In this document: in pieces, positions 8,890-56,200 of the stretch
Position numbering within the stretch: position 1 is the stretch's first letter
Layout: each line of letters opens with the position of its first letter
From: Elusimicrobiota bacterium
Lineage (GTDB): Bacteria > Elusimicrobiota > Elusimicrobia > UBA1565 > UBA9628
Reading direction: 5' to 3'
Assembly (NCBI GenBank): GCA_027371715.1
Contig: DAHXMM010000021.1
Span: 18,923-82,922 of the forward strand
DNA length: 64,000 nt
Notes under the pieces: model-generated
Seen by the model: the letters and a program-made list of their open reading frames with translations, nothing else
Told to the model about the DNA's origin: nothing
Databases searched by the model: none
Made by a program: the position numbers and the translations under genes

Positions 8890-8999
8890 GGTTTCCTTCC
8901 GTGCGAACTTTTGAACCAACCATTTCTGACCGAATATAAATGAGGAAATGCCGTTTCCAAATTCTGTTTAAGAGAGTGGCCTCGCTTAGGCTCGGTCAT
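8886..8999 (-). repeat. nuo intergenic spacer element, long form (37-codon mini-ORF between nuoM and nuoN)
   Basis: Near-duplicate of 7406-7519 with the same ATGA overlaps at both ends. Confidence 0.6.
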
Positions 9000-12297: not shown

Positions 12298-12298
12298 A

Positions 12299-13074: not shown

Positions 13075-13146
13075 AGACCTATCTTAGTTTTTTTAAAAAG
13101 AGGGAATCAAATCAAAAATATTTTTCCCGTCTCGAATCTTGGAATT

Positions 13147-22603: not shown

Positions 22604-22648
22604 AGGGGGATTTTAACATTTTTTGCGCGGGCTCAATGAGAATTCCGG

Positions 22649-24061: not shown

Positions 24062-24070
24062 GGAATCTCC

Positions 24071-24850: not shown

Positions 24851-24858
24851 AAACTCTC

Positions 24859-26232: not shown

Positions 26233-26289
26233 TTTTAAATTTCCTCCGTCATCCGAATGAGATATTCTGGATTAGTTGCCGCTAGTCGG

Positions 26290-26345
26290 TCAATCATTCT
26301 CAAAATGCCGCCTAATCATTCTATCTATCCCCAATGATTCTTCCA
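26290..26345. promoter_or_regulatory. array of three AGAATsATT sites spaced about 20-22 bp apart, upstream of the GS-like ligase gene
   Basis: aatcattct at 26293-26301 and 26314-26322, plus an inverted aatgattct at 26333-26341 (this third site lies within the last codons of the Ntn-hydrolase gene). A GGAGG RBS precedes the ATG at 26232. Confidence 0.3.
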
Positions 26346-27178: not shown

Positions 27179-27246
27179 GCTTTAATTTAAACAAATTCAA
27201 GGCCGGTCAATTCCGCGACAACGCCCGAATTTGTCAGAATACCTAT

Positions 27247-27732
27247 GTGGCTGAGAAAAAAACCGAAGCGGACAAAAGCAAAATCAGCGTCGCCCTGAAC
27301 CGAAAGGCGCGGATGCTCTATGAGATTTTCGACACCTTCGAGGCGGGGCTTCTTCTCAACGGAGGCGAAGTCAAATCTTTGAGATCGGGACGCATTTCCT
27401 TGGACGGTTGTTTCGGGCAATCGAATGACGGTGAGCTTTATCTTTTTAATCTCCATATCCCCCATTATAGTTTTGACTCCAACGCCCCCACCGATCCGCG
27501 AAGGTCGCGGAAACTTCTTTTGCATAAAGCAGAAATACGAAAAATATTAACCCAGATTGACGCTAAGGGAATGACCCTGGTGCCGCTTGAGATTTATTTC
27601 AAGCGCGGCTGGGCCAAGGTGAGTCTGGGAATCGCGCGCGGAAAAAAAGGCCCCGACCGCCGGGAAGAACTCCACAAAAAAGCGCTCACACGCGAAGCCG
27701 AAAAGAGCTTTAAAGGAAAGTTCCGGGCTTGA
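27247..27732 (+). CDS. smpB: SsrA-binding protein
   Basis: Conserved SmpB blocks: NRKARMLYEI, GGEVKSLR and the C-terminal basic tail KRGWAKVSLGIARGKK. Confidence 0.85.
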   Translation: MAEKKTEADKSKISVALNRKARMLYEIFDTFEAGLLLNGGEVKSLRSGRISLDGCFGQSNDGELYLFNLHIPHYSFDSNAPTDPRRSRKLLLHKAEIRKILTQIDAKGMTLVPLEIYFKRGWAKVSLGIARGKKGPDRREELHKKALTREAEKSFKGKFRA

Positions 27733-27762
27733 ATCGCTAGAAAAAAGACAGTCTTCCTTTCC

Positions 27763-29490
27763 TTAATTTTTCTGGCAGACGAGAAGCTGAAGGTAAGGCG
27801 CGGGCGTTCCGACGACGGAACTGCTGTTGTTGGTGACCGAGATGCCGGTCTTGGCGGAATTAATCGAGATGCCGGTTGTCGCGGAATTAATCGTGATGCC
27901 GGTTGTTGAAGTCTGCGCCGATCCACTGACATAAATACAATTTCCGGATTGGCAATTTCCAACTGCTGTAGGTATACCTTCTCCCGTTCGTCCGCCACCT
28001 CCACCATATTGAGTATCCCCATAAATTACATGGGAATGGCCCGGATCATTAATTGAATGAGAATGACCGGGATCGTTGATGGAGTGGCTATGCCCCGGAT
28101 CATTAACGGTATCCGTAATATGTCCCGCGGGACGATCCTCAAGATTGGAAAGCGCCGTGCCGTCGGTTCCGGCCAAAGCGCCTCCGGAAGGAAGGCCGAC
28201 AAGGTATCGCCCCTGGGCTGCGGCAAGCGCGGTCCAGCCGGAAGGACAGGAGGATAAATTAAAAAACATAACGGCGCCCGAGGGCACCGCGCCCACGCCG
28301 GAAAAGGCCCCCGCCGTCAGCGTTCCCGTGACATTGGCATTTCCGGATACGCTGAGCGGGTTTGTCGGACTCGCAGTCCCGATGCCAACATTGCCGTTCT
28401 GGTTGACGACAAAAGTCGAAGCTCCCACCGCGAAAAGATTTCCCGCGGCGGGAACGCTGGATACCCCCACTACGGACGCGGTGACGGAATTCGCAATCGC
28501 CGCCGAACTCGCGCTGATGTTCCCCGTCAAACTTGAGCCTGGGACATTGGTCAACCCCACCCCCGATCCGTAAAACCCTGTTCCTGCCGTGACCGAGGAC
28601 TCCGCTGACACAAACCCCGTCACCGTCGCGCTTGAACTCGTCAACGCCCCCTCGACCGTAACGCTCGAAGCTGTCGCGTTCATGATGGAATTGCCCAACG
28701 AGGTCGGGCTCGTAAATTCAGGAATCTGCCCTGTCGTTCCGCTCACGCTCGACCCCAGGGCTAGCGGCCCTCCGTTCCAATACAGGCTCCCCGAGTTGTT
28801 ATACAGCGTCATGTTCGTATTGCCCGGAACCGCGCTGCTTAAATGAATTCCCGCCGTCCCGCCTCCGGTCCCCACGATATCCAAGCTCTGCGCCGGACTC
28901 GCAGTCCCGATGCCCAAGCTTCCAGACAAAACGAACACGCTCGTCGTCACGTTAATCCCGGAGAATCCCGAGGCCGCCGTCAAGGTTGACACCGCAATCG
29001 TTCCCGTCGAGGTCAAGGTTCCCGTTACCGAGACGGTTGAGATCGTCAGATTCCCCTCGATGTTTCGCGCCATCAAGGCGTAGGGCACTGAGAGTAAGGC
29101 CTGCCGGGGCAGAAGCGGCGTCGTCTCGATATCGGTCTCGATATATTTTTGAGCCGGCCCCGCCAAGGCCGAGGTTGAAATATTAAGAGAAGTCCCAAAC
29201 ACGCCTTGACTCACCTGAACCTGAACGGGACCGCTCTGCCACAAAACGTTCCCGCCTGTCGGAGCGTCGTAGAGATAAAAGGTCAGAATCTCGGTCCCCG
29301 TCACCGGATAGCCGTTTTGCATCAGCCGACCTTGATACGATATCTCATCTGGCACCGTGCCGCTTGGAACCGCCGTCGCCAACACCTTCACCTGCGCTCT
29401 TAAAGGAGAAGACGCGAATAATAAAACTAGCGGAAAAAGAAAAAAAACAAAAACGCCACGACCTTTCCATGATTGACCGACGGACATCAT
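27763..29490 (-). CDS. secreted phage-tail-collar-domain protein (MdpB/tail-fibre-like) with beta-helical repeats and a triplicated DPGHSHSIN motif
   Basis: Signal peptide. C-terminal CPSGWTALAAAQGRYLVG...APYLQLLVCQKN matches the phage tail collar domain. Three tandem NDPGHSHSI repeats. Confidence 0.55.
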   Translation of the reverse strand: MMSVGQSWKGRGVFVFFLFPLVLLFASSPLRAQVKVLATAVPSGTVPDEISYQGRLMQNGYPVTGTEILTFYLYDAPTGGNVLWQSGPVQVQVSQGVFGTSLNISTSALAGPAQKYIETDIETTPLLPRQALLSVPYALMARNIEGNLTISTVSVTGTLTSTGTIAVSTLTAASGFSGINVTTSVFVLSGSLGIGTASPAQSLDIVGTGGGTAGIHLSSAVPGNTNMTLYNNSGSLYWNGGPLALGSSVSGTTGQIPEFTSPTSLGNSIMNATASSVTVEGALTSSSATVTGFVSAESSVTAGTGFYGSGVGLTNVPGSSLTGNISASSAAIANSVTASVVGVSSVPAAGNLFAVGASTFVVNQNGNVGIGTASPTNPLSVSGNANVTGTLTAGAFSGVGAVPSGAVMFFNLSSCPSGWTALAAAQGRYLVGLPSGGALAGTDGTALSNLEDRPAGHITDTVNDPGHSHSINDPGHSHSINDPGHSHVIYGDTQYGGGGGRTGEGIPTAVGNCQSGNCIYVSGSAQTSTTGITINSATTGISINSAKTGISVTNNSSSVVGTPAPYLQLLVCQKN

Positions 29491-29542
29491 GGACCTATTG
29501 ACTCAAATTTCAGGGCCGGGTGTCAAAATCGGAGACTCGCCC

Positions 29543-30853
29543 TTACCGATTCGTCTTTTTTCTCAATTCCTTAAGTCGCGCGGACAAGCGTTTTTCGTCT
29601 CCTTCTTCGGTCGGATGATAAAACCGAACAGGACTCGGCAGATATTCCTGAAAGACGTAATGCCCGGGAAAATCGTGCGGATACTGATAACCCGCTCCGT
29701 GTCCTCGGCTTTTGGAATCTAAATTTGAATCTCGGAGAAAATGAGGAACCTCGCGCGCGGGCCCCTTTTCCACTTCCTCCATCGCGGCGTCTATCGCCAA
29801 ATAAGAAGCGTTTGATTTGGGGGCGCAGGCGACATAGACGCAGGCTTGAGCGAGAATAATCCGGGCCTCCGGCATTCCCACTTTCTCAACCGCCTCAAAG
29901 GCGGCATTGCAAATTAAAAGCGCGCGGAAATCCGCGTTTCCGACGTCTTCAGAGGCGCAAATCAAAAGACGACGAGCGATAAAACGCGGGTCTTCGCCGG
30001 CTTTAAGCATTTTTGCCATCCAATAAAGGGCCGCATCAGGGTCCGAACCGCGGAGAGATTTAATAAAAGCGGAAATGTGATCGTAGTGATCGTCTGATTT
30101 TTTGTCGTAGCGCAAAACGCGTTTTTGAAGGCTCGACTCAAGACCATTTAGGTCAATCCGGCGTTCTCCAGTAGGATTAATCTCAGCGGACAAAACCGCC
30201 CGCTCAAAAGCGTTGATTAATTTTCGGGCATCTCCCGAGGAATCGACAATAAGATGGTTTTGAGCGTCCCCATCCATTCTGACCTTCATTTTTTTAACTT
30301 CCTCATTTTCCAAGGCCGCATTGAGGATTTTTTTTAAATCCTGTTCCGTCAACGGCTTAAATTCAAAAGTGGCCAGACGAGACAAAAGCGCGGCGTTGAC
30401 ATAAAAAGAGGGGTTTTCGGTCGTCAGCCCGATTAAGACGACCTCCCCTTTTTCGGTCGCGGGCAAAAGAACGTCCTGCTGGGTTCGGTTAAAATGGTGA
30501 ATCTCATCAATGATCAAAAGAGAACGTTTGTTTTGGAAAAGCCGCCGTTCTCGGGCCAGGTCCAAAGCTTTTTTTAATTCAGAAACTCCGGACGCGACCG
30601 CGTTTAAAAACGTGGCCTCCATATCCAATTCGCGGGCGATTAAACGGGCTAAGGCCGTTTTGCCGCACCCCGGAGGGCCAAAAAATATGGAGGAAGAGAA
30701 ATTTTTACCGGCGATAATCTGGGAAAGAATTTTTCCGGGGGCCAAAAGATGACTTTGACCAAAAAAATCTTTAAGGGTCTTGGGAGCCAAACGCCAGGAC
30801 AAGGGAGAATCAACGGCGAAATCAAAGGAACCGAATAAAGACTCAGTCTTCAT
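29543..30853 (-). CDS. rarA: replication-associated recombination protein A (AAA+ ATPase)
   Basis: Walker A GPPGCGKTALARLIA, Walker B LLIIDEIHHFN, and the MgsA C-terminal domain. Confidence 0.85.
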   Translation of the reverse strand: MKTESLFGSFDFAVDSPLSWRLAPKTLKDFFGQSHLLAPGKILSQIIAGKNFSSSIFFGPPGCGKTALARLIARELDMEATFLNAVASGVSELKKALDLARERRLFQNKRSLLIIDEIHHFNRTQQDVLLPATEKGEVVLIGLTTENPSFYVNAALLSRLATFEFKPLTEQDLKKILNAALENEEVKKMKVRMDGDAQNHLIVDSSGDARKLINAFERAVLSAEINPTGERRIDLNGLESSLQKRVLRYDKKSDDHYDHISAFIKSLRGSDPDAALYWMAKMLKAGEDPRFIARRLLICASEDVGNADFRALLICNAAFEAVEKVGMPEARIILAQACVYVACAPKSNASYLAIDAAMEEVEKGPAREVPHFLRDSNLDSKSRGHGAGYQYPHDFPGHYVFQEYLPSPVRFYHPTEEGDEKRLSARLKELRKKTNR

Positions 30854-40299: not shown

Positions 40300-40539
40300 T
40301 CAGCGGGAAACAGATTTTAGTTTTTCTCTCAAATGGTTTTTAGCTCTAGGCGGAGTCGAGACATTCACCTTAAGAGAACCTAAAATTCCCACGGTTTTTC
40401 TGATGGTCTTAAAAAGAGCGACGCAAGGTTTACATTCTTTCAGGTGAGATGTAATTTTAGAGAGAGTCTTAAAATCCAAGCTTCCATCAATATAATCAGA
40501 CATCTTCCGGGAAAGATTCTTACAGTGGGGGTCTTTCAT
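40300..40539 (-). CDS. putative anti-sigma factor (zf-HC2 type)
   Basis: 79 aa with an H..C..C motif (HLKECKPC). Translationally coupled downstream of the ECF sigma factor gene. Confidence 0.5.
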   Translation of the reverse strand: MKDPHCKNLSRKMSDYIDGSLDFKTLSKITSHLKECKPCVALFKTIRKTVGILGSLKVNVSTPPRAKNHLREKLKSVSR

Positions 40540-41117
40540 CTGACTTTCTCTTTAAACTCAATCTCAAAACGCTCCCGCAGAAACATTCGTCCACGATGAA
40601 GACGGGATTTAACCGCAGGGACGCTCAGCTTTAAAATTTTTGCGGTTTCTTCGGCTGAGAGGCCTTCGATATCCCGCAGAGTCAGAACAAGACGATAGTC
40701 CGCCGGAAGATCCGACAAGGCCTTGGCCACCGCCTGTTGCAATTCTTTCTTTCGCGAAATTTCCTCGGGGTTTGGAAACCAGTCTTTAAACTCCCAGGAC
40801 CCGCCTTCTTCATCCGGACGCCTGCGTTCCAAAAAAGAAACCACGGGTTCTCGTTTTTTCTTACGGAAGCGAACCCAGCAGAGATTTGCCGCGATGCGGT
40901 AAAGCCAGGTCCCTAAATTCGAGCGGTTCTTAAATCCTTTAATATTTTTGAACGCCGAGAGAAAAGTTTCCTGATAGACGTCTTCCGCATCCGAAGGCAT
41001 GCCGACACAAACATGATGGGCCAGACTAAAAATTTTATTTTCGTAATTACGAATGAGTTGGGAAAAAGCCTCCACGTCCCCAGCTTTACTTTTCTCGATA
41101 AGCTCCGCTTCTTTCAT
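40536..41117 (-). CDS. ECF-family RNA polymerase sigma-70 factor
   Basis: Sigma-70 region 2 (YQETFLSAF...WLYRIAANL) and region 4 HTH (LSAEETAKILKLSVPAVKSRLHRGR). Confidence 0.85.
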   Translation of the reverse strand: MKEAELIEKSKAGDVEAFSQLIRNYENKIFSLAHHVCVGMPSDAEDVYQETFLSAFKNIKGFKNRSNLGTWLYRIAANLCWVRFRKKKREPVVSFLERRRPDEEGGSWEFKDWFPNPEEISRKKELQQAVAKALSDLPADYRLVLTLRDIEGLSAEETAKILKLSVPAVKSRLHRGRMFLRERFEIEFKEKVR

Positions 41118-41131
41118 GAGGAAGAGAAATC

Positions 41132-42319
41132 CTAGGCTTTCACCGAAGAAGGGCCTGGGAAATTCTTCAACAAATGGCGAGAAATGACTAACTGTTGAAT
41201 TTGAGAAGAACCTTCCCCAATTTGATAGAGCTTGGAGTCTCTAAAAAATCGCTGGACAGGACATTCAAGGGAAGACGCCTCGGGACCAATGAGATCTAAA
41301 ATTTCGCTGGTCGCCCGAACCGCCAAATCTCCGCTAATGAGCTTTGCCATCGAAGCTTCTTGAGAGTAAGGGCGTTTTTGATCCATCAAAAACGCGGCCC
41401 TATAGGTTAAAAGCCGGGCGGCATCCACCTCAGAAGCGATTTGAGCGAGAACTCTCTGGGCGTAGGTCAACCCTGGGTTTTCAGGCAAAATCCCGTAATC
41501 CGCTTGCCGTTCCCTAACCCAGCGAATTCCCTCTTCCAAAGCCGCGCGGGCAATACCGACCGAAATTGCCGAAATGGCGACGCGACCGCCGTCCAAGACA
41601 ACCATCGCGTCCCGGAAAGCGCGGCCCGCTTTACCGATGAGCGCATCCTTGGGGAGTTTCAAATTGTGAAGATGTAGTTGCGCCGTGTCAGAAGACCTCA
41701 ACCCCATTTTTTTCTCAATTTTTCCGATATTAAGCCCGGGCGTTCCTTTCTCCACGACAAAAGCGCTTAAACCTTCCCGCCCATTTTCGGTAAATTCAGC
41801 GGAGGTCTTGGCAAAAATGACATAAATTCCGGCCACCGAACCTTGAGTGGTAAAGGTTTTAGAACCGTTGAGAATCCAATGGGTTCCGTCAAATTCAGCC
41901 CGGGTTTGAATGGAGGCGGCGTCCGAGCCCGCGCCCGGCTCAGTCAACGCCCAGGCCCCTAGGTCTTGCCCCGAGGCCAAGCGTGGAATATAACGCTGAC
42001 GCTGTTCTTCGCTTCCGTGAAGGTAAATTTGGCTCGAACAAAGTCCATTGTGAGACTCAATCGTCAAAGCAATCGAAGCGTCCACCCGGCCCAATTCCTC
42101 TAAAATCACGCAAAGACCTAATTCATCTTCTCCAAGCCCGCCATACTTCTTAGAGAACGGAATCCCCAAAAGACCCATTTCCTTAAGGAAAGGAACTGCT
42201 TCCCAGGAAAATTCTTCTTTTTGGTCTCGTTCTTTGGCTTTAGGGGCGAGCTTTTGATCGCAAAAATCTCGCATCCGCTCTTGAAGCCCCAGATGGCGGG
42301 GGGTTAAATTAAAATCCAT
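41132..42319 (-). CDS. acyl-CoA dehydrogenase family protein
   Basis: ACAD N-, middle- and C-terminal domain similarity across the full 395 aa. Confidence 0.8.
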   Translation of the reverse strand: MDFNLTPRHLGLQERMRDFCDQKLAPKAKERDQKEEFSWEAVPFLKEMGLLGIPFSKKYGGLGEDELGLCVILEELGRVDASIALTIESHNGLCSSQIYLHGSEEQRQRYIPRLASGQDLGAWALTEPGAGSDAASIQTRAEFDGTHWILNGSKTFTTQGSVAGIYVIFAKTSAEFTENGREGLSAFVVEKGTPGLNIGKIEKKMGLRSSDTAQLHLHNLKLPKDALIGKAGRAFRDAMVVLDGGRVAISAISVGIARAALEEGIRWVRERQADYGILPENPGLTYAQRVLAQIASEVDAARLLTYRAAFLMDQKRPYSQEASMAKLISGDLAVRATSEILDLIGPEASSLECPVQRFFRDSKLYQIGEGSSQIQQLVISRHLLKNFPGPSSVKA

Positions 42320-42328
42320 ATTTTAATT

Positions 42329-43231
42329 CTACAAGTTTTTAATCGGCGATTTTTCCAAAGCCGCGAAATAGACTCCGGCTAAAATAAAGGCGCCGCCCAA
42401 GGAACTCCCCCAGTTGAGGCCTTCTCCCAAAAGAAAAACCCCTAAAAGAGCCCCTAAGAGGGGTTGAACAAAAATAAAATTAGCCAGGATGGAAGCCGAA
42501 ACCCGTTCCATCGCGAGATTCCAGGTGAGAACTCCCAAGAAAGAAACTCCCAACGATAAATAAAGGAGGGGCACAAGGCCCGTCTTGAGAAAATTAAATT
42601 TAACAACCGGCAGATGAAATATCCCTGCGCAAAAAAGAAGCGGAAAAACGGCGACCATAGAGGTTAGAGCGGTTAAGCTCAAGGCATCCATCTTTTTAAG
42701 AAGGGGTTTGCCGAGAATAGTATACAATGCGAACAAAATGCCTTGAACGCACAAGAAACCGTCTCCTAAGTAGGAACCATGGGGAGACTGAAACAGAAAA
42801 GCGAGGGAATGTCCTTGAGCGACAATTAAAAAAGATCCCGTTAAACTCAACACTAGGGCGAAAATTTTTAAAACCGATAACTTTTCATCTAGGAATATAG
42901 CCGATAAGAAAATAATGGCCATCGGTTCTAAAGCCATGAGTAGAGCGGCATGAGTCGCGCTGGAAAGTTTTTGTCCCCACGCTCCCGCCCACAAGGGCAT
43001 GTCGTAACCAATGACGGCGATTAGAGAAATCCGGACCCCCTCGCCAAAGCCCAAATTATTCTTTTTGAAAAACCGAATACAAAAAGGAAGAAAAAAAGGC
43101 CCCGCCAGCACAACCCTCCAAAACACCACCGCAAAAGGTGAAAGATTTTTTAAAGCGTAGGATGTAGCGACAAAGGAAGCCCCTCCCAGAATATTGGTCA
43201 GAAGAAGTAAAAAAAACGAACTGACGCTCAT
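42329..43231 (-). CDS. EamA/DMT-family transporter
   Basis: 300 aa, ten predicted TM helices in two EamA repeats. Confidence 0.7.
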   Translation of the reverse strand: MSVSSFFLLLLTNILGGASFVATSYALKNLSPFAVVFWRVVLAGPFFLPFCIRFFKKNNLGFGEGVRISLIAVIGYDMPLWAGAWGQKLSSATHAALLMALEPMAIIFLSAIFLDEKLSVLKIFALVLSLTGSFLIVAQGHSLAFLFQSPHGSYLGDGFLCVQGILFALYTILGKPLLKKMDALSLTALTSMVAVFPLLFCAGIFHLPVVKFNFLKTGLVPLLYLSLGVSFLGVLTWNLAMERVSASILANFIFVQPLLGALLGVFLLGEGLNWGSSLGGAFILAGVYFAALEKSPIKNL

Positions 43232-43240
43232 CTTAATTTC

Positions 43241-45514
43241 TTAAGGCAAACGAGGAGTGGGAGGAAGCTCGACGCCGTGCGCCTTGGCGGATGCGCGAAT
43301 CACTTCCTCATGGAGAATGCGCCCGTCTTGATCCATGGCGTTCAAAAGCACATGGGCCATGGCCGAAGGGATATCGGGCATATATCCAAAAAGAACTGGA
43401 ATCACAAGTTCTTCCGCCAAGGCCGTGCCCTCTTTTTCGCCCAAACGCTCGCTTAAGGCTTTTCTTAAATTCCAGGCAAATCCACTCCAGGCCAGGCCTT
43501 GTTCATGGACCTCATCTTGAGGATTCAATCGATAATTATTTTCTCCGCTTCGAATCCAGCTGGGATTTTGCTTTTTATAGAATCCTTCTCCGATCAAAGG
43601 GGTGTCCAACATAAACATCGACACAATATCTCCCCAGCCCTCGTTTAAGCCTTCGTCCGAACGCATTCCCACAGGATGGTCTAAAACGGGAAGTTTATAA
43701 GAATACGAGAAATAAGCCCGCGCGCGCTTAAAAAGGTTCATGAAAAAACCAGTCGGCGGATTATGGATCATATCGTCCGCCTTATGCGTCATTTCGTGGA
43801 AAAAAACTCCGATTCGCCCCGTATCGGAATATTCTTCGTTTTCGCGATCGGAATGAATGTCGCCGCTCTCAGGGCTGTACCAAGCGTTTCCAAACTCGGA
43901 GGAATTCACCCGAATCGTAGTCCGATAATCCAGGCGATGATCAAAGTTTAAGAGCTTTCGCAACCAAGCCCGATGACGCGAATCGGCTACATAAGCGTTG
44001 ACCTGGTTGACGATGAATGGGTCTGCTCCCTCGGGATTAAAAACTACTGCATTTCCTGCTCCCGGGCGAAGCGTTCCATTAATTTCGACCGGATTTCCAC
44101 TTTCATCAATCACCTCGGTAAAAAGACCTGATAATTTCGCCTTGACGGTTCCCTGCGGAAGTTTAAGATCGGCGGAAAAACGCCCATTCTCATCGGTGGT
44201 ATAATTGCGGCCATCAATCGTCAGATGAAGAAACGGAAGGGGTTGGGGCGACAAGAGAATTTCCCCATTGGGACGATGGTCCGTCGATTCCGCGCGCGCC
44301 AGCGCCTGACCCTCGACCTTGGACGTTTCTCCTCGCAAATTTAAAGCTAAAGGATTCCGGCTTACAGTAGCGGAAATTTTATGAGCGCTTTCTATTAAAC
44401 CCGACGGCAAACCCAAGGAACTAGCTCCTTGATTGTTCCAAATAAACACCTCTCCATTGAATAGATCAGCCGCGAGGGCGACGGGAAGACCTTTCTTACG
44501 GTAAAGATTGACGGCGCGCCAATGACCTCGGTATTCGATAACGGCTCTCCCTAAAAAACGAATCAAGGTTTCGGAAGAATCCGCGTATCGCGCCCGGACC
44601 GCCTCATTTAAGTCCGTATCGCTTAAAACCGGCTTTTTTGGAAGAGAGACTTCATCGTAGAGGTTCGAGCGAAGAGAAACAAGAAATGCTCTTCCCTTAA
44701 CAACCTTGATCGTAGCCGCCGCATAAGCTCCCCAAACAGGCAAGGACATCGCGTTTCCAATATGGCTAAGAACGTCTTTCTTTTGGCGAAAATAGGCGTA
44801 AATAGTATCAGTCCGATGGGGGCCTCCGGAAACCGCCGTCACATAGACCGTAGCCAAATCCGAGCTTGAAAGCCCAAAGTCCCCCTTGTGAAGATCTATT
44901 TTCGCGCGCAAAATTTTTTCAATAGAAAATTCATCACTTGGGTTGACATGAAGTTCAAGAGAGCGGGAAAGAAACCCATCTTTATCCCCCTCTTCTTCCA
45001 GTAAATTCCGGCGTGGAGCCGCCCCTGGGGCAAATACAATCTCCGGAGAGCCTTCTTCTGAAGAATCCGAAGGCACATCGAGAGTTTTAGGGAAATTTTG
45101 AGGCAACAGGTTTCCAGAAAAACTTTGCCCATCGAACAAACCAGAAAAAGGGACTGTCCCTTTGTTTAAGAAGGAATTCTTCCCTTTCTTATTCCGTGAG
45201 AAAAATTTTTTAATTTTAAGCGCCCATGGTTTAATTTTTTTAATAGGCTTCTGGAAAAAACGAGGCAACTCAGTTTTTTCTTCTTTTGACAAAAGACGAG
45301 GAACAAGATTTTGAGACGAAAGAGCTTTAATTTCGTCTAAATTCGGTAAATTGACCTCCGGCTCTAATAAAGAGGGACTAGAAATAGTATCTGGAGGCAC
45401 GACTTGAGGGGGAGAGGCAAAGTCTTTAAAAACCTCCGCCGCATGAGAGGGGGGAAAACTCAGTAAAAGAAAAAAAGAAAGCGCAAGGGTTTTCCCTTGC
45501 GCTTTCCTATCCAC
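43241..45514 (-). CDS. secreted M4-like (thermolysin-family) zinc metalloprotease, paralogue 1
   Basis: Signal peptide. HEMTH zinc motif, then NEGWGD (Glu zinc ligand) and D..H (DEVHEQG), in the order seen in thermolysin-type gluzincins. Probable GTG start. 31 nt downstream of paralogue 2. Confidence 0.55.
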   Translation of the reverse strand: MDRKAQGKTLALSFFLLLSFPPSHAAEVFKDFASPPQVVPPDTISSPSLLEPEVNLPNLDEIKALSSQNLVPRLLSKEEKTELPRFFQKPIKKIKPWALKIKKFFSRNKKGKNSFLNKGTVPFSGLFDGQSFSGNLLPQNFPKTLDVPSDSSEEGSPEIVFAPGAAPRRNLLEEEGDKDGFLSRSLELHVNPSDEFSIEKILRAKIDLHKGDFGLSSSDLATVYVTAVSGGPHRTDTIYAYFRQKKDVLSHIGNAMSLPVWGAYAAATIKVVKGRAFLVSLRSNLYDEVSLPKKPVLSDTDLNEAVRARYADSSETLIRFLGRAVIEYRGHWRAVNLYRKKGLPVALAADLFNGEVFIWNNQGASSLGLPSGLIESAHKISATVSRNPLALNLRGETSKVEGQALARAESTDHRPNGEILLSPQPLPFLHLTIDGRNYTTDENGRFSADLKLPQGTVKAKLSGLFTEVIDESGNPVEINGTLRPGAGNAVVFNPEGADPFIVNQVNAYVADSRHRAWLRKLLNFDHRLDYRTTIRVNSSEFGNAWYSPESGDIHSDRENEEYSDTGRIGVFFHEMTHKADDMIHNPPTGFFMNLFKRARAYFSYSYKLPVLDHPVGMRSDEGLNEGWGDIVSMFMLDTPLIGEGFYKKQNPSWIRSGENNYRLNPQDEVHEQGLAWSGFAWNLRKALSERLGEKEGTALAEELVIPVLFGYMPDIPSAMAHVLLNAMDQDGRILHEEVIRASAKAHGVELPPTPRLP

Positions 45515-45545
45515 CGTCTTTATTTCCTTATTATCTTATATTCGA

Positions 45546-48035
45546 TTAAGCCGAAGGAGCTTGACCTTGCGATTGCGATTCCGGAATCGTCATCCCGTGT
45601 TTGGCGGCGGCCTGTTGCAAAGTTTTCATCGCCGTCGATTGAACCGCGGCATCGGTCAACGATTTGGCGGCCAGGTAAATGACGCTTAAGGCCGCCGGAA
45701 CATCGGCGGAGTTCGCGTAGCCATAGATATGCGGAAAGATAAGACCCTGGATTAAAGACAACGCCTTATCTTTGCCTAAAGCGTCTCCCAGAAGAGAATG
45801 CCAAGCCCCGCCATATCCAACAGTTCCCATAAAAGCCAGCCCCTGCCGATGAACCTCGTCTCCAGGGTTGAACTGATAATTATTCGTCGTCTCGCGTAAA
45901 GCGCCGCCAGGAACGTTGGGAAGAGGAGATTGAGATGGATCATTAAAGAAATGTTCTCCAATTAAAGGAGTCGACAGGATGTGGGTGGCAAACATATCGC
46001 CGATGCCTTCCCCTAAACCCGGATCCACCGAAGCCATGGCGTTAAGACCCAAGTGGGCATAGCTGGCCACCAAAGCATGGGTCCAATGACCGCTTTCATG
46101 AAAACCGACTCCAGGAAGGGTCCCGGTATTGATGCACTGCGCGCTGGACAAAAAGAAATTGAGCGTATTTGAAGACGGATCATAATAGGCGTTGCATTCA
46201 TCCGCGATATTCACGTTGATAGTCAATTTCTGTTTGAGTAAGCCGTCTTTTTCGCCAACGCCGTGGGCCATGGCCCAATTGATAAAAGTATAGTGGCTAT
46301 AATAAGCGGTCACCTGCGCCAATTCTTTCTCCGACTCGGCCCGAGCTTGACTCTCGGCGTCTTCTTGGGCGCGATAAGAAGGAGAGAAAAAATGTTTAAA
46401 AGTTCGGACAATTTTTCCCCACAGAGTTGGTTTTGGGGCGGGCGTGGTAGGACCGGTCACACTGGTCGGCGGATTAAAAACAACCACGACGCCGTCTTTC
46501 CCTTGAACGAGGCTTGCCTTGACCACCAAAGCCTCGCCCGCTTCATTATTAATTACGACATGATCGCTTTCAAGTTTCGCGGTTACGTCCATCGGTTGGC
46601 CGTTGGCCAGATCAACATTGACCCGCCCCTGATCATCAGCATTAACTTCACGGCCGTCCGGAAGAGTGACCGTCACTCCCGGCAAAGGCAACTGATGAAG
46701 AGTGGGAGGAGTTCCCATATCGTTATCGGAAGTCGGAACGCGGGCTTCAAACTGCGCCGAAGACGAAACGCCAGCCGGAGGCCCGGTCGTAGGAGACGCC
46801 GCGCCTAAGCGCATATCCCACAAGAAGGTCTGTCCTGTTGAAATATCGGCCGCAACCAACGCATCAATGCCTTCTACTTTGTAGAGGCTAATCGCATGCC
46901 AAGCCCCGCCTTTTCCGGAAGAAGACGGAACATAGAAAATTTGCCGATCGCGGAATGAAATTTTGGCCGATTCATCATTTTGAAGTTTGAGCCGATTTTT
47001 GATTTTACTTTCCAAAACCGCGTCGTTGAACTTGGAAGAAACATCCACTTTGAGTTTGGGAAAAAGCCGCCCATGGACGCCGACAATGACCGGCTTCCCG
47101 TTTTTGACGTGGATCGTAAAATTAAGAGAAGCGCCGTAAACCGGAAGCGGGTTTGATTTTCCATCCGTATATTGTTGATGGAAAGAGGCGTACCAGGTCG
47201 GAAGTTGCCCGGGAACTTCCGTCAAATGAAGCTGGGAAGTTCCTAAGTCCGAGCTTCTGACCTTATATTGTGGATTGGAATCAATCGCCTCGCGCAACGC
47301 GCGCTCGATACCACCGGCGCTTTGCGGATTAGCCGCAAGCGGAACGTCCACCAAGCGATCGAAAACTTGAACCCCCGGAGCGGCAACTTCGGCGGCGGGC
47401 TCTTCGGTCGTGGAAACGACGTTTAAAGACTGATGAAATTCCGGTTGTTCTCGAAAATCCGGGATAATGGGGCCGGCATCGGTTTTAACCCCTTTGGGGA
47501 GTTTAAGTTTTGGAAGCGGGCGAATGGACGGGGCGAAAGCGGAGAGCCCGAGAGCGGACAAGCGCGATTGGCGCTTAGACCCGTCAAAAAACCGCGCGCC
47601 GATTTTTTTCAGATGAGAGCCAATGAAGGCGGCGAGATGGCTTAAGGATTTCGCCTTCGCAACCTGTTCAGGGCGCGCGATAACGGAGGCATTGGCGGGC
47701 GATAAATTTTGTCCTACTGGTTTGGCATTAGAACCAGAAACGCCTTGAGACGCCTCCGTATCCCGGAATTTAGGGACAGTCCCCAACTGAATCGCGCCAA
47801 GAGAATCTTCAAATTGCAGAGATTCTTCCATGCCCTCGGCCGGCAAGGAAAAAGCGTTTTCTTGAGCATCCATCCCTAAAGGAAGATTCGACAAGTGAAT
47901 GGGAAGGACCTCTCTCCCGGAATTTCCCGTCTCAATCATGCCTCCAGCCCAAACGGGCCCAAAACCGGAAGAAACCAGAACGCTGAGCGAAAGCAAACCG
48001 CTGATTATTTTTTTATTCATAAACTCCTCATTCAT
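45546..48035 (-). CDS. secreted HExxH zinc metalloprotease; assignment to the M4 (thermolysin) family is tentative, paralogue 2
   Basis: Signal peptide MNKKIISGLLSLSVLVSS. HESGH, then GEGIGD and DEVHRQG. Start assigned to an ATG with a GAGGA RBS; an alternative start is at 48020. The thermolysin-type Glu ligand block (NEAxSD in paralogue 3) is only weakly recognisable here as GLGEGIGD, so the M4 call is less secure than for paralogues 1 and 3; an HExxH gluzincin is certain. Confidence 0.55.
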   Translation of the reverse strand: MNEEFMNKKIISGLLSLSVLVSSGFGPVWAGGMIETGNSGREVLPIHLSNLPLGMDAQENAFSLPAEGMEESLQFEDSLGAIQLGTVPKFRDTEASQGVSGSNAKPVGQNLSPANASVIARPEQVAKAKSLSHLAAFIGSHLKKIGARFFDGSKRQSRLSALGLSAFAPSIRPLPKLKLPKGVKTDAGPIIPDFREQPEFHQSLNVVSTTEEPAAEVAAPGVQVFDRLVDVPLAANPQSAGGIERALREAIDSNPQYKVRSSDLGTSQLHLTEVPGQLPTWYASFHQQYTDGKSNPLPVYGASLNFTIHVKNGKPVIVGVHGRLFPKLKVDVSSKFNDAVLESKIKNRLKLQNDESAKISFRDRQIFYVPSSSGKGGAWHAISLYKVEGIDALVAADISTGQTFLWDMRLGAASPTTGPPAGVSSSAQFEARVPTSDNDMGTPPTLHQLPLPGVTVTLPDGREVNADDQGRVNVDLANGQPMDVTAKLESDHVVINNEAGEALVVKASLVQGKDGVVVVFNPPTSVTGPTTPAPKPTLWGKIVRTFKHFFSPSYRAQEDAESQARAESEKELAQVTAYYSHYTFINWAMAHGVGEKDGLLKQKLTINVNIADECNAYYDPSSNTLNFFLSSAQCINTGTLPGVGFHESGHWTHALVASYAHLGLNAMASVDPGLGEGIGDMFATHILSTPLIGEHFFNDPSQSPLPNVPGGALRETTNNYQFNPGDEVHRQGLAFMGTVGYGGAWHSLLGDALGKDKALSLIQGLIFPHIYGYANSADVPAALSVIYLAAKSLTDAAVQSTAMKTLQQAAAKHGMTIPESQSQGQAPSA

Positions 48036-48083
48036 TTTACGATCCTCACCTGCCTTCTTTATTTTATCCATTGATTCATCAAT

Positions 48084-48125
48084 CCGTATGGGTCTAAAGG
48101 CCTAGAGAGTTTCCGGCAAAAGACC
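48084..48125 (-). promoter_or_regulatory. conserved 42-nt leader motif upstream of M4 protease paralogue 2
   Basis: Minus strand GGTCTTTTGCCGGAAACTCTCTAGGCCTTTAGACCCATACGG. 34 of 42 positions are identical to 50673-50714, upstream of paralogue 3. Confidence 0.5.
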
Positions 48126-48147
48126 CAGGTCTCAAACTCCACAAACC

Positions 48148-50643
48148 TCATCGCGCGGCGCGACCGGAGGGAGAATTTCCGCCCGCCACGAGGACATTGC
48201 CACCCTCTGGAAACGAAGGCGAGGCCGGAAGATCAAGACCGTGGTCGTTTTTAGCGTGGGAACGGATGATGGACTCGTGCGGAATAGTTCCGTCCTTGGC
48301 CATATCGGCAAGCATTGCGTGGGTCAAGGCGCTGACCGGATCGGCGGGTTGAGCATAGAGAGAAGTTAGAACGAAAATAAGAGCGGAGCGAAAAGCGCCT
48401 TCAGCTTCTCCCATCGCGGCCATGATGTCCTTTCGGCTCATCCACGCCGTTCCCATTTGGGTCTCCCCCTGATTATGGGGATCGGAATTTTTGGGATCAT
48501 AGACGGTTTTATTTTCGCCGGTCCGGATAATGGTCGGCATTCCAGGGAGAGGATTGAGAATAAAGCCATTTCCGATCACGGGGCTATTTCTCATGAACAT
48601 GGAAATCGTGTCTGCCGTCGCTTCATTGGAGCCGGAGCCCATCACAGGGTCAATCGGATGCTTGACAAAGCGATAGGCCGGAGCGTTGACTTCCTCGGAA
48701 GTCAAATTGAGCTGGGAAGCCCTTTGAACAAAACGATGCCCCAATTCATGGAGAGAAATGGAGGGTTGGGAGGTGTTTTCAAAAGTCAGAAGAATCGTCT
48801 TGATTTTCCCGTCTTTCCCGCGAATTTTTTCAGGAAGCGTAGCTTTTTTCATTAAATAGAACCCGTCGGTCATCGGATCATAGTCGGCGTTTCCTGGAAG
48901 ACTGGTCCCATTGGTGTGGATGGAACCGGCCAAAGGCGTATAGAATCTGGGATCGGACAAACCCAGATAGGACTTGAACCAATTAAAAAGCCGATAAGAA
49001 TAAACATAGGCGTTGACGCTGGCGGCTTGCTGTTCATCATCCCCCGTCGGATTTAAAGTGACGCGAACGGTTTCTCCAGGTTTAACGGTCAAATTCGCGA
49101 CAATCGGAGAATCCGAAGAATCATCATCAATGACCGGCCCATAAATTCCATCCAAGCGCACGGTAATCGCCAACGGCTTCCCCGCATTGACGGAAGCGGG
49201 AATGGTGAAATTTCCATTCTCATCGGTCACCGTAATGACACGGCCTTGGGAATCGAAAACCTTGGCATTGGGCAAAGCCATATCGCCGATAGGCCCATGG
49301 TCTTCCCCGTCTTCCGTCAACGTCGTCCCCCGCCCGACCGCCGTTCCGGAAATGGAGCCGCCGGAAGAGGCAACGCGATGGTCGAGAACTCCGTCTGAGC
49401 CCAAAGGAAACGCTTCCCCGGTCTTAACATCAACCAAGATCATCTCTTGTCCCCCGGTCAAAGAAGTTCCTTGATAGATATTGACCGCACGCCAGGAATT
49501 CGAGAAATAGACAATTTCGCGAGCCATCAGCGCCACCTGAGGAGCCCCGCTCAACAAACTCAAATGTCCCGGAGTTTTAGGACGAATGACGTTATCTGTT
49601 GAATTTCCCCCGTTTGGTTTTTCGGAAGACAGTTGTTTGCGAGCGATTTCTTCCAGCTGGGAATCGCTATAACCCGGCTTCATAATCGCCGGATCAATTT
49701 CAGGAGCAAAGCCGCCTTCAACGCCCATCATCACCGGCTTTCCGTTCAAGACCTTAATATGGAAGCGTAAATTGGCCTCATCCACCAGTAAATAATAAGG
49801 AGAGCCGTCCAAATCGGTCCCTTTTTGCCATTGTCTGAAAACCGCGATAATGCTGTCGGCTTGATCGGCTTGCCCTGACAATTTGACCACATGAACCGTG
49901 GACATCTGATCGCTCGGCTTTCCATACTGAGAAGATAGTCCGTATTTCGCGGGGTTTGAATCCACTTCCTGGCGCAAGGCTTGTTCGATAGAGGCCATAT
50001 CCGTTGGATCGGCATTGAGAACAACCGGTTTTTCTCCTTCCGGGGTGACCGAATTAACCGAAAGATGAAACTGTTTGAGCGCGACGAGGCCCTTTTTCGA
50101 GGGTTCAAGCAAAAACCGGCGTTCGGTAAAAGAAGTAGGGGCTTCGTTCTGCCAGGGCTTACGGCGAACGCCTAGAGAAAATTTGCCTGCAAAATTCTGA
50201 CCGTCAAAATTAATTTTTGCGCGCGAAGGCGTAGAAATTCCGCGCCCCAAGAATTTTTTTAGACGCTTAAAAACTTTTGAAAGCGGCCTCAGATGAGGCA
50301 GGTTATTTTTTTCTTCCTTTAAAGCGGAAGGCTTCGCAATATTTTTCTCCATTGAGTTTTTGGAAATTGCTTTCAAAACCTCCGCGGTTTTCTCTTGGGA
50401 AACCGACAATGATTCAAGCACGGATGCGGAAGTCAAATTGGCCGGCAACTCTTCTCCTGGACTTAAAAGATTGATGGAATTTTGAGCTGAAAAATCAAGC
50501 GGCGAAACCAAGGCAGGCGAAATATTTTCAGGAGTATTAGAGATTTCACTTCGAGCGCCAAAACCGGCGAAAGCGGGGCTTAGAGAAGAAAGAATTAAAG
50601 ACAAAGACAACGAAGAGCGCAAAAATATTTTTTGATTTTTCAT
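48148..50643 (-). CDS. secreted M4-like (thermolysin-family) zinc metalloprotease, paralogue 3
   Basis: Signal peptide. HELGH, then GSNEATADTISMF (compare thermolysin GGINEAISDIFGT) and DPHNQG. Confidence 0.6.
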   Translation of the reverse strand: MKNQKIFLRSSLSLSLILSSLSPAFAGFGARSEISNTPENISPALVSPLDFSAQNSINLLSPGEELPANLTSASVLESLSVSQEKTAEVLKAISKNSMEKNIAKPSALKEEKNNLPHLRPLSKVFKRLKKFLGRGISTPSRAKINFDGQNFAGKFSLGVRRKPWQNEAPTSFTERRFLLEPSKKGLVALKQFHLSVNSVTPEGEKPVVLNADPTDMASIEQALRQEVDSNPAKYGLSSQYGKPSDQMSTVHVVKLSGQADQADSIIAVFRQWQKGTDLDGSPYYLLVDEANLRFHIKVLNGKPVMMGVEGGFAPEIDPAIMKPGYSDSQLEEIARKQLSSEKPNGGNSTDNVIRPKTPGHLSLLSGAPQVALMAREIVYFSNSWRAVNIYQGTSLTGGQEMILVDVKTGEAFPLGSDGVLDHRVASSGGSISGTAVGRGTTLTEDGEDHGPIGDMALPNAKVFDSQGRVITVTDENGNFTIPASVNAGKPLAITVRLDGIYGPVIDDDSSDSPIVANLTVKPGETVRVTLNPTGDDEQQAASVNAYVYSYRLFNWFKSYLGLSDPRFYTPLAGSIHTNGTSLPGNADYDPMTDGFYLMKKATLPEKIRGKDGKIKTILLTFENTSQPSISLHELGHRFVQRASQLNLTSEEVNAPAYRFVKHPIDPVMGSGSNEATADTISMFMRNSPVIGNGFILNPLPGMPTIIRTGENKTVYDPKNSDPHNQGETQMGTAWMSRKDIMAAMGEAEGAFRSALIFVLTSLYAQPADPVSALTHAMLADMAKDGTIPHESIIRSHAKNDHGLDLPASPSFPEGGNVLVAGGNSPSGRAAR

Positions 50644-50917: not shown

Positions 50918-50989
50918 GGCGAGGTAGCTCAGTGGTAGAGCACTGGTCTGAAAAACCAGGTGTCGACAGTTCGATCCTGTCCCTCGCCA
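50918..50989 (+). tRNA. tRNA-Phe (anticodon GAA)
   Basis: Cloverleaf: acceptor GGCGAGG/CCTCGCC, D-arm GCTC-AGTGGTA-GAGC, anticodon arm CTGGT-CTGAAAA-ACCAG, T-arm GACAG-TTCGATC-CTGTC, discriminator A. CCA is not encoded. Confidence 0.9.
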
Positions 50990-54441: not shown

Positions 54442-54446
54442 GAGTC

Positions 54447-54471
54447 AAAAAAGGGGACTGTCCCCTTTTTT
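54447..54471 (+). terminator. rho-independent terminator after tonB (A-tract, GGGGA-ctg-TCCCC hairpin, T-tract; potentially bidirectional)
   Basis: aaaaaaggggactgtcccctttttt, 6 nt after the tonB stop. Confidence 0.7.
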
Positions 54472-54486
54472 GTAGAATAGAGTCGC

Positions 54487-54570
54487 GCGCGGGTGGCGGA
54501 ACTGGCAGACGCGCACGGCTCAGGACCGTGTGGCCGCAAGGCCTTGAGGGTTCAAATCCCTCCTCGCGCA
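54487..54570 (+). tRNA. tRNA-Leu (anticodon CAG)
   Basis: Acceptor GCGCGGG/CTCGCGC (one G-U pair), anticodon arm CACGG-CTCAGGA-CCGTG, long variable arm (GGCCGCAAGGCC), T-arm GAGGG-TTCAAAT-CCCTC, discriminator A. Confidence 0.85.
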
Positions 54571-54949: not shown

Positions 54950-56200
54950 GCTTCCAAGTCTATAACTCTCCAAAGATCGTCGTTTTTTTAAACCGATGTT
55001 TTGGCGGCTTCTTGGCCAATGGCCCAGACAAAGCCTCCCAACTCCCGCGCAACCGCGATCACAGCCTTCTGAACTAATTTGCCTTTATGAGTCAGCCGCG
55101 CGAATTTCCGGCACAACCTATCTTGCGCCGCTCGCGCTATCGCCACGACCCTTTCCGGACACCCCTTCCGCCGTTCCGCCAACTCGCGACTCACCGTTCC
55201 GCCGTGTCGATAACTCCATGCCGCTTCCCCTAAAATACGGCGGATATGCGCGTTCCCCGTCTTGGTAATGCTGCCGCGCTTGACCACCGATCCGCTACTG
55301 AATTCCGAACAAACCAAGCCGCTGTAGCTCATGAATTCCCGCGCCTTATTAAACCGCCGGAAATCTTGAGCCTCAACCGCCAGCGTAACCGCGCTCAGCG
55401 TATCAATTCCCTTCAAACATCTCAAATACTTCACCACATCCGCATGCTCTTTCTCTTGCGCCATATCCGCCACTTGCCGATCCAAACACTCCAGACGCGC
55501 TTGCGTTTCCTCGCAGGCTCGAAAATTCGCCTCGAAGGTTTGCTGAAGATGCGGCCTTTCGAAACGCAGACTCCTCAGCCACGCAAGATGTTCCCCGCGC
55601 CACGATGTTCGCCCTTCATAAATCCTCCCTTGCCGAAGCAGAAATTTCAATATCCTATTGCGAACCCTCAACCGGTCTTCCATGACGTCTTCCCTCGCTC
55701 GAATGAGATCCCGCGCCGCTTCCTCCTCTTCATCAGGAACCCGAACCTCCGTCAACTCTCCGGCCCGGTACAACCGCGCCAAATTCTCCGCATCTCGACG
55801 GTCAGTCTTCACTCGATCCCCGGGACGCTTCGGAATTAATGAGGGAGCGATCACCACGCATTCGCGCTTCATCCCGCTTATTTGCCGGTAAACGTCATAC
55901 CCACAGGGACCTGCCTCATAGACAAATACTCCCCCGGACAAACGCCGAACCAATTTCCTCACGGACTCGGGGCGGTTTTCCATCCGCGCTATTTCTCCCG
56001 GCTTTTCCGACCCCCGCCTTAACACCGCCGCGACAATCGTTTCCTTATGCACGTCCATTCCTACTATTGTGTTACAATCTTTCATGAGCCGACGCCTCCT
56101 TGTTATTTGCGGATAGGTTCCCTTTCAGGGAATAACCCGCGTATTCTAATAACTTTGCGAGGTTGTCGGCTCATTCATTCTATCTGTCCCTATCTCTGCT
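54950..56200 (-). mobile_element. IS110-family insertion sequence (ends approximate)
   Basis: Single transposase ORF. An imperfect inverted repeat ATGAGCCGAC..CTC at 56084-56098 and 56160-56175 spans the transposase start. IS110 elements lack classical terminal IRs, so boundaries cannot be fixed from sequence alone. Confidence 0.5.
54988..56085 (-). CDS. IS110-family transposase
   Basis: N-terminal DEDD-type RuvC-like domain (IVGMDVHKETIVAAV...) and C-terminal IS116/IS110/IS902-type domain (YSGLVCSEFSSGSVVKRGSITKTGNAHIRR). Confidence 0.85.
   Translation of the reverse strand: MKDCNTIVGMDVHKETIVAAVLRRGSEKPGEIARMENRPESVRKLVRRLSGGVFVYEAGPCGYDVYRQISGMKRECVVIAPSLIPKRPGDRVKTDRRDAENLARLYRAGELTEVRVPDEEEEAARDLIRAREDVMEDRLRVRNRILKFLLRQGRIYEGRTSWRGEHLAWLRSLRFERPHLQQTFEANFRACEETQARLECLDRQVADMAQEKEHADVVKYLRCLKGIDTLSAVTLAVEAQDFRRFNKAREFMSYSGLVCSEFSSGSVVKRGSITKTGNAHIRRILGEAAWSYRHGGTVSRELAERRKGCPERVVAIARAAQDRLCRKFARLTHKGKLVQKAVIAVARELGGFVWAIGQEAAKTSV

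Follow-up and report, generated by a model that had tools for sequence, protein, structure and literature searches.

The window analyzed here, a 64,000-nucleotide (nt) stretch of contig DAHXMM010000021.1 from an Elusimicrobiota bacterium, contains a run of seven minus-strand genes that opens with three predicted secreted metalloproteases. In gene order these are P3 (831 amino acids (aa), 48148..50643), P2 (824 aa, 45546..48020), and P1 (757 aa, 43241..45514, with a GTG start). They are followed by genes for an EamA-type transporter, an acyl-CoA dehydrogenase (ACAD), an extracytoplasmic function (ECF) sigma factor, and an anti-sigma protein. A conserved 42-nt element stands 5′ of P3 and again 5′ of P2, and a hairpin lies at the P2/P1 junction. 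The best overall explanation, to which we assign a probability of roughly 0.65, is that the proteases are divergent secreted thermolysin/fungalysin-like paralogues, that P3 and P2 have cis-elements of their own, that the P2/P1 junction carries a hairpin, and that the sigma/anti-sigma pair is a bystander.

The three protease genes were delimited from the list of open reading frames (ORFs) and by BLASTP. In addition, P3 has orthologues that are 72–88% identical in four related loci from metagenome-assembled genomes (MAGs; L004–L007), the start of P2 was set from the starts of its orthologues, and P1 was modelled with AlphaFold. All seven minus-strand ORFs lie where the first-pass annotation of this DNA had placed them, apart from the start of P2. 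The end of that gene at 45546 stands, but the start proposed at 48035 does not: orthologues keep the ATG at 48020 (MNKKIIS...), and the in-frame ATGs at 48035 and 48071 are peculiar to the window genome.

The three protease paralogues

BLASTP related the three proteins to one another with E-values of 6e-56 (P3/P1), 4e-45 (P2/P1), and 7e-25 (P3/P2), and the alignments ran from approximately residue 200 to the C-terminus at 24–27% identity. The N-terminal ~500 aa had been described as mutually divergent. This holds for the first ~165–200 aa, where a ~140–190-aa low-complexity linker comes after the signal peptide and no alignment is obtained, but not for the remainder, which aligns. In L004–L007, each copy is 62–88% identical to its own orthologue and 22–28% identical to the other two copies. 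Moreover, the catalytic domain of P1 shares 49–51% identity with unrelated family members, versus 30–33% with P2 and P3. The orthologue identities, and the greater closeness of the P1 catalytic domain to other family members than to P2 and P3, indicate that the triplication long predates the clade. Judged by sequence, P1, P2, and P3 are genuine, ancient tandem paralogues.

The HExxH, Glu-ligand, and D..H blocks previously noted in P1 and P3 could each be located to residues, and P2 has all three as well. In P3 they read HELGH (632–636), NEATAD (673–678), and DPHNQG (721–726); in P2, HESGH (641–645), GEGIGD (670–675), and DEVHRQG (721–727); and in P1, HEMTH (573–577), NEGWGD (624–629), and DEVHEQG (667–673). 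The residues H, E, H, E, D, and H of these blocks are invariant in all three paralogues and in family alignments of 17 and 29 sequences; N48, R166, W192, and H257 (P1 catalytic-domain numbering) are invariant in these alignments as well. The family keeps HExxH in 110 of 113 catalytic domains, and its typical members read HEYGH...GGLSEGWGD...DEVHxQG, which is the fungalysin pattern. The Glu-ligand block of P2 had been called weak; this description has to be withdrawn because GEGIGD fits both the family consensus, SEGWGD, and the fungalysin sequence, GEGWGD. The deviant block is instead NEATAD of P3.

A signal peptide is present in each of P1, P2, and P3. AlphaFold modelled P1 (mean pLDDT 66) with a signal peptide and a disordered linker at residues 1–164, a confidently folded pro-region at residues 180–360, and a beta-rich segment at residues 399–492. 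The disordered stretch between the latter two (residues 362–396) is, on the model, a plausible maturation site. The catalytic domain spans residues 499–757 with a pLDDT mostly of 80–97, and includes a low-confidence insertion (588–619) between HExxH and the Glu helix. P3 is laid out as a signal peptide, a low-complexity linker of ~190 aa, a pro-region, a beta domain, and a catalytic domain. P2 alone has an insertion of ~42 aa (PTSVTGPTTPAPKP...AESEKELAQ) between the beta and catalytic domains (residues ~516–585, window ~46266–46475), part of which is modelled as a long helix.

The fold of the P1 pro-region matched that of the PepSY protein YpeB (E 0.012, probability 0.95). The Pfam FTP and PepSY models gave no match to the pro-regions of P1–P3, and matches to both are present in distant family members. 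We also noted a short motif within the linker, a basic amphipathic stretch followed by FDG, at residues ~104–134 of P1 (window ~45113–45205), ~120–150 of P3, and ~125–147 of P2. This motif is kept in at least 90% of the 17-sequence alignment and is a shared feature of the Elusimicrobiota protease family.

By homology, each protease would be exported via Sec by means of its N-terminal signal peptide, and the PepSY/FTP-like pro-region would probably assist folding as a chaperone and also inhibit the enzyme, the roles that it has in families M4 and M36. Zinc is expected to be bound by both HExxH histidines together with the Glu in the ExxxD helix. The general base would be the Glu of HExxH, and the transition state would be stabilized by the invariant His of H-x-QG.

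Placement between families M4 and M36

The first-pass annotation had assigned the proteases to family M4, and we compared them with curated models of M4 and M36. A Pfam/NCBIfam scan of full-length P1–P3 returned no protease-family match at E < 1, and neither Peptidase_M4 (PF01447) nor Peptidase_M4_C (PF02868) matched their catalytic domains at E < 10. Peptidase_M36 (PF02128) scored the P1 catalytic domain at 11.6 bits (E 0.16), under its gathering score of 23.3 bits, and gave no score for the catalytic domains of P2 and P3; some relatives passed this gathering score (P0140, 32.2 bits; P0120, 25.5 bits). Among 29 diverse catalytic domains of the family, Peptidase_M36 was matched by 17 (best E 1.1e-7) and Peptidase_M4 (PF01447) by 3, so the assignment to M4 was not borne out. 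A profile of 17 homologues retrieved 2110 representative clusters (defined at 50% identity) at E < 1e-3, of which 215 were at E < 1e-30. Family members are mostly from Elusimicrobiota, with distant ones in Omnitrophota, Bryobacterales, Planctomycetales, Myxococcales, and others.

Solved structures were searched by sequence and by fold. Against the sequences in the PDB, the profile of the 29 catalytic domains matched fungalysins (7qp3, E 1.4e-7; 7z6t, 2e-7; 4k90, 4.3e-5) about as strongly as it matched M4 enzymes (aureolysin, 7.9e-7; bacillolysin, 3.4e-5; thermolysin, 1e-3). The alignments inspected, all three of them to fungalysins, pair the HExxH, EGWGD, and VH..G blocks. A profile made from the three paralogues retrieved a single, spurious, Ig-like match from the same sequences. 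In Foldseek, all 14 significant PDB matches of the P1 model were to M4 enzymes (E 9e-8 to 4e-5, target TM-score 0.60–0.64), and the top 10 matches of the P2 model were likewise all M4 (aureolysin, gentlyase, thermolysin, protealysin, and neutral protease). The matches of both models to M4 had a probability of 1.00. The count of three thermolysin-like paralogues, in which P2 had been included tentatively, is therefore upheld at the level of clan and fold, given that the P2 model matches M4 structures only.

P1–P3 resemble fungalysin (M36, PF02128; Aspergillus fumigatus Mep, PDB 4k90 and 7z6t) in having HExxH followed by a G/S-E-G-W-x-D block (NEGWGD in P1, GEGIGD in P2), in the V-H-x-x-G block, in the FTP-type pro-region matches of their relatives, and in that a fungalysin is the best profile match among solved structures (E 1.4e-7). 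Unlike fungalysin, P1 and P3 carry insertions of 22–32 aa between HExxH and the Glu, and P3 has NEATAD. P1–P3 also add a disordered N-terminal linker of ~140–190 aa, separate the pro-region from the catalytic core by a beta-rich segment, and come from a bacterial rather than a fungal source. With the M4 enzymes (thermolysin, aureolysin, LasB, vibriolysin MCP-02, and Legionella ProA) they share a predicted two-lobed fold, HExxH, the ExxxD helix, a His equivalent to thermolysin His231, and probably the logic of a secreted pre-pro-enzyme with a PepSY-like prodomain. They differ from M4 in giving no significant Peptidase_M4/M4_C match, in sharing 10–14% identity in structural alignments, and in the distance from the second His of HExxH to the Glu, which is 26–48 residues in P1–P3 versus 20 in thermolysin. 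Collectively, the sequence comparisons and the predicted structures indicate that P1–P3 are thermolysin-fold gluzincins, of the clan MA(E) type with its HExxH and a Glu further along. Their branch appears to lie deep between M4 and M36, closer to M36 by hidden Markov model (HMM), and is largely unannotated. A search for literature on metalloproteases of Elusimicrobiota found none.

The 42-nt element and the P2/P1 hairpin

P3 and P2 had been credited with leaders of their own, and each indeed has a copy of the 42-nt element, recognized by conservation. The copy 5′ of P3 (50674..50715, minus strand) lies ~30 nt ahead of the ATG; the copy 5′ of P2 (48085..48126, minus strand) lies ~20 nt past the P3 stop and ~65 nt ahead of the P2 start. 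The element, AGGTCTTTTGCCGAA-N6-CTAGGACTTTAGACCCATGCG (equivalently AGGTCYTTTGCCGGA-N6-CTAGGMCTTTAGACCCATRCG), consists of two conserved blocks of 15 and 21 nt around a variable center. It is present ahead of P3 and P2 in 10 of 10 cases in five genomes (the window and L004–L007) and nowhere else in those loci. A metagenome scan retrieved six further full copies, all on contigs of assembly VFSW01 (L058, L061, L064, L065, and L067). Each of these lies 50–85 nt 5′ of a gene whose product has a signal-peptide-like N-terminus (judged by eye); the genes encode an M48 peptidase, an ankyrin-repeat protein, and proteins without family matches.

The 16 instances of the element align without gaps, fold weakly, and show no RNA covariation. 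We considered a structured RNA leader and rejected it (RNAalifold −6.3 kcal/mol, zero compensatory pairs). Given the lack of covariation and the weak fold, we read the element at the level of DNA: it is probably a promoter or operator of a lineage-specific regulon, and P3 and P2 would each be driven or controlled by their own copy. The idea of an N-terminal basic patch-FDG module common to the proteases and the unrelated element-bearing proteins was also discarded; the corresponding HMM found only members of the protease family, and the VFSW01 protein scored 3 bits.

The hairpin at the P2/P1 junction (45465..45508, minus strand), identified by folding and conservation, has a perfect stem of 13–15 bp (15 bp in the window), a 4-nt loop, and a U-run (TTTCTTTTTTT tail), 37 nt past the P2 stop. 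It overlaps codons 3–17 of P1, within the signal peptide, and the P1 start codon is 3 nt from the stem. Its fold has a z-score of −5.35 relative to shuffled sequence. The hairpin is kept in five of five genomes while the loop varies (AAAA, TTTT, AGGC), and 96% of cells are paired across the five, versus at most 72% for slid registers. Two stem pairs have compensatory changes, one of which joins a Gln-to-Arg replacement to a synonymous Leu change. A terminator scan was too unspecific, and rarity was instead gauged by counting perfect stems: the 64-kb window has three perfect hairpins of at least 10 bp, the P2/P1 hairpin among them. Elsewhere in the window, a perfect 12-bp hairpin flanked by an A-run and a T-run (CAAAAAAGGGGACTGTCCCCTTTTTTG; 54446–54472) lies between the stop of a tonB-like gene and tRNA-Leu, and looks from its sequence like a bidirectional intrinsic terminator in form. 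A perfect 10-bp AT-rich hairpin (41372–41395) lies in the 3′ part of the ACAD gene, ~255 nt 5′ of the sigma start.

By its form, that is, a GC-rich stem-loop and a U-tract that follow a stop codon and are conserved, the P2/P1 hairpin is a candidate intrinsic terminator or attenuator. It resembles the partial intrinsic terminators and attenuators found in operons in its GC-rich perfect stem, 4-nt loop, U-run just past the upstream stop, and compensatory changes. Unlike these, it sits in the signal-peptide codons of the next gene. With 3 nt between the stem and the P1 start codon, every P1 mRNA has to cross the hairpin, and because the hairpin lies within the P1 coding sequence, translation initiation and hairpin formation should compete.

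Behind the hairpin the genes are tightly packed. P1 is followed by the gene for an EamA/DMT-family transporter (42329..43231, minus strand, 300 aa) and by that for the ACAD (41132..42319, minus strand, 395 aa), which is butyryl/acryloyl-CoA-reductase-like and falls under the equivalog cut-offs; both were identified with Pfam and NCBIfam. The gaps are 31 nt (P2 to P1), 9 nt (P1 to EamA), 9 nt (EamA to ACAD), and 14 nt (ACAD to ECF sigma), and the sigma and anti-sigma genes overlap by 4 nt, in agreement with the gaps of 9–31 nt first noted from P2 on. The Pfam domains of the four downstream genes (EamA, three ACAD domains, Sigma70_r2/r4, and zf-HC2) also agree with their original identification. 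Being tightly packed behind a hairpin that overlaps the P1 start, the genes from P1 to the anti-sigma are probably expressed at a lower level. They would likely be reached by read-through or by translation-coupled attenuation. The first-pass annotation had described one long transcriptional unit; with a 42-nt element before both P3 and P2 and a terminator-like hairpin at the P2/P1 junction, a single transcript from P3 to the anti-sigma appears doubtful. Termination of the transcripts between the genes had been named as grounds for refuting that unit, and by sequence the hairpin is a strong candidate for such a site.

The array is no chance feature since its arrangement is conserved in related MAG loci: the whole of it is kept in L004–L007, and the part from P1 to the anti-sigma is kept in a fifth related locus, whose sequence begins within P1. 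The genomic setting is ordinary. Housekeeping genes flank the array on one side (tRNA-Phe, two HEAT-repeat genes, and exbB-exbD-tonB) and on the other (glgA, scpB, scpA, and a class-I aminoacyl-tRNA synthetase gene). The listed start (50905, plus strand) of the first HEAT-repeat ORF overlaps tRNA-Phe (50918–50989), so the real start must be further downstream. An IS110-family transposase gene (DEDD_Tnp_IS110/Transposase_20; 54988–56085, minus strand) adjoins tRNA-Leu (54487–54570). The window has a strong AT skew of 0.28–0.35 at 8000–14000, and parts of 22000–30000 have a raised GC content of 0.55–0.58 versus a background of ~0.48–0.50. An Rfam search of the window found two tRNAs and nothing more.

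The sigma/anti-sigma pair and competing explanations

The sigma factor (40536..41117, minus strand, 193 aa) is RpoE/SigW-like by Pfam, NCBIfam, and sequence similarity. It matches Sigma70_r2, r4_2, and Sigma70_ECF, scores 97.8 bits against TIGR02937 (cut-off 42.9), and has the sigma-2 and sigma-4 regions only, in ~190 aa, as is characteristic of ECF (group IV) factors. The overlapping gene (40300..40539, minus strand) encodes a 79-aa zf-HC2 protein, which Pfam, NCBIfam, and hydropathy identify as a soluble zinc-binding anti-sigma (ZAS) of the CHCC type. Its zinc motif comprises C6, H32, C36, and C39, the first Cys being 26 residues ahead of HxxxCxxC, and it has no transmembrane segment (maximum 19-residue hydropathy 1.0). 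The protein thus fits the definition of the soluble CHCC (RsrA) class, whose members have HxxxCxxC with a Cys 23–26 residues N-terminal to it, in a single domain without a membrane segment (PMC4960319). RsrA-SigR of Streptomyces and NMB2145-sigmaE of Neisseria meningitidis share the small single-domain soluble CHCC anti-sigma. Meningococcal rpoE, moreover, lies toward the distal end of an operon that is polycistronic and autoregulated, with the gene for the small cytoplasmic ZAS protein NMB2145 behind it (PMC2893595), just as the window sigma gene is distal in a polycistronic cluster with the ZAS gene next. Unlike RsrA, the window anti-sigma scores 29.4 bits versus an NCBIfam RsrA cut-off of 62.5, and unlike SigR, the window sigma is nearest to RpoE/SigW by sequence. 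The most plausible input to the pair is a signal from the cytoplasm, perhaps the oxidation of thiols.

Sigma orthologues with 60–67% identity are numerous across Elusimicrobiota. Three orthologous loci (62–66% identity) were examined, and their neighbours are PFOR and cytochromes, a histidine kinase, and PPK2 with efflux genes, respectively; none of the three has a protease, ACAD, or EamA gene beside the sigma gene. In two of them, a short protein (74–86 aa) is encoded after the sigma gene, one with a zf-HC2 match and the other without a Pfam match. ECF, ACAD, and EamA neighbours are, in turn, absent around the protease homologues in L009–L042. Hence a conserved link between proteases and sigma factor, such as had been drawn from their adjacency, is not supported, with orthologous sigmas in unrelated contexts and distant protease relatives without the ECF, ACAD, or EamA genes. 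As the association is limited to one narrow clade, it is most simply explained by inheritance of gene order: the sigma/anti-sigma pair would be a self-contained, phylum-wide module and its adjacency to the proteases a local accident.

Between P3 and the sigma gene we found no positionally conserved match to the canonical ECF promoter patterns (GGAAC/GAAAC-N15-18-CGT or GTC; GGAAT-N16-19-GTT). A sigma-54 promoter, proposed by eye, was rejected on the same ground over the same interval. The 42-nt element is absent 5′ of the orthologous ECF sigma genes in L069–L071. In the VFSW01 locus L065 (1700–2845, minus strand), an ECF sigma gene whose product is 31% identical to that of the window is paired with a gene for a membrane-anchored zf-HC2 anti-sigma; this pair ends 58 nt 5′ of a copy of the element, and the ankyrin-repeat gene lies behind that copy.

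Several explanations compete with the one given at the outset. The first-pass annotation had proposed that three M4 paralogues, EamA, ACAD, and the ECF/anti-sigma pair form one operon in which the pair responds to envelope or secretion stress and controls the proteases by feedback. All genes being on the same strand with gaps of 9–31 nt from P2 on, the thermolysin-like fold, and the conservation of the arrangement in five close MAG loci speak for this proposal. We nevertheless consider it improbable: there is no Pfam M4 match, a conserved terminator-like hairpin stands between P2 and P1, and the association breaks in both directions, the sigma/ZAS pair being found away from proteases elsewhere in the phylum and protease relatives being found that lack the pair. 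A soluble 79-aa single-domain protein with the CHCC motif of cytoplasmic RsrA, and with no transmembrane or periplasmic part, cannot itself sense the envelope. Alternatively, the 42-nt element could be a promoter read by the window ECF sigma, such that P2 to the anti-sigma form an autoregulated operon, P3, P2, and the other element-bearing secreted proteins are the regulon, and the hairpin only tunes read-through. The autoregulated, polycistronic rpoE operon of Neisseria with its small cytoplasmic ZAS protein (PMC2893595) offers a precedent, the element is bipartite with a fixed, −35/−10-like spacing, no separate ECF-type promoter was seen ahead of the sigma gene, and the L065 pair lies 58 nt 5′ of an element. 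This alternative is also unlikely, as the element lacks the usual ECF motifs of the GGAAC/CGT type, its blocks of 15 and 21 nt exceed sigma contacts, it is absent 5′ of the orthologous sigma genes in L069–L071, and the L065 sigma is just 31% identical and partnered by a membrane anti-sigma.

A different doubt concerns catalysis itself, namely, that P1–P3 might be non-catalytic surface or adhesin proteins that retain a protease-like fold. One relative (P0033) is named 'collagen binding domain-containing' at NCBI, the beta-sandwich domain has a faint CarboxypepD_reg match, and the N-terminal linkers are long and disordered. However, the catalytic and zinc-binding residues are all invariant in the three paralogues and in 17–29 diverse sequences, and HExxH is missing from just 3 of 113 family members, leaving this possibility with very little probability. 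Our preferred explanation, of divergent secreted proteases beside a bystander sigma pair, has points against it as well. The family call rests on remote homology and predicted structure, because no protein of the window passes a curated protease HMM; the AlphaFold models have a mean pLDDT of 60–66, and target TM-scores are only ~0.6 at 10–14% identity. Not every CHCC ZAS protein senses redox state, meningococcal NMB2145 being one that did not respond to oxidants (PMC2893595). The covariation of the hairpin comes from just five sequences, with the observed score reached in 36 of 500 shuffles; moreover, instead of terminating transcripts the hairpin could be a stabilizer or act in translation. 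The 42-nt element may be a promoter or something else, and it could, at a low probability, be a target of the window ECF sigma, given the L065 pair just 5′ of a copy.

We tentatively suggest, as a possibility against which the odds still lie, that the element marks a 'secretome regulon' in one Elusimicrobiota clade under a dedicated factor, and that the hairpin in the P1 signal-peptide codons is a translation-coupled attenuator. If so, the regulon would include two of the three proteases, the M48 peptidase, the ankyrin-repeat protein, and several unknown exported proteins, and the attenuator would set the output of P1, the transporter, the dehydrogenase, and the ECF sigma.

P1–P3 are new, divergent members of a known enzyme type, and the new regulatory features of the locus are the 42-nt element and the hairpin. 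The proteases belong to a family of ~2100 clusters that Pfam and NCBIfam do not see in its Elusimicrobiota branch, and a family that bridges M4 and M36 helps both in classifying proteases and in judging how far uncultured phyla can degrade protein. A sigma/anti-sigma pair that closes a run of genes cannot be taken as evidence that it regulates them, and here the comparative context shows the pair to be portable. For a phylum whose promoters and terminators are essentially uncharted, the 42-nt element and the hairpin within the P1 codons give a concrete way into gene regulation.

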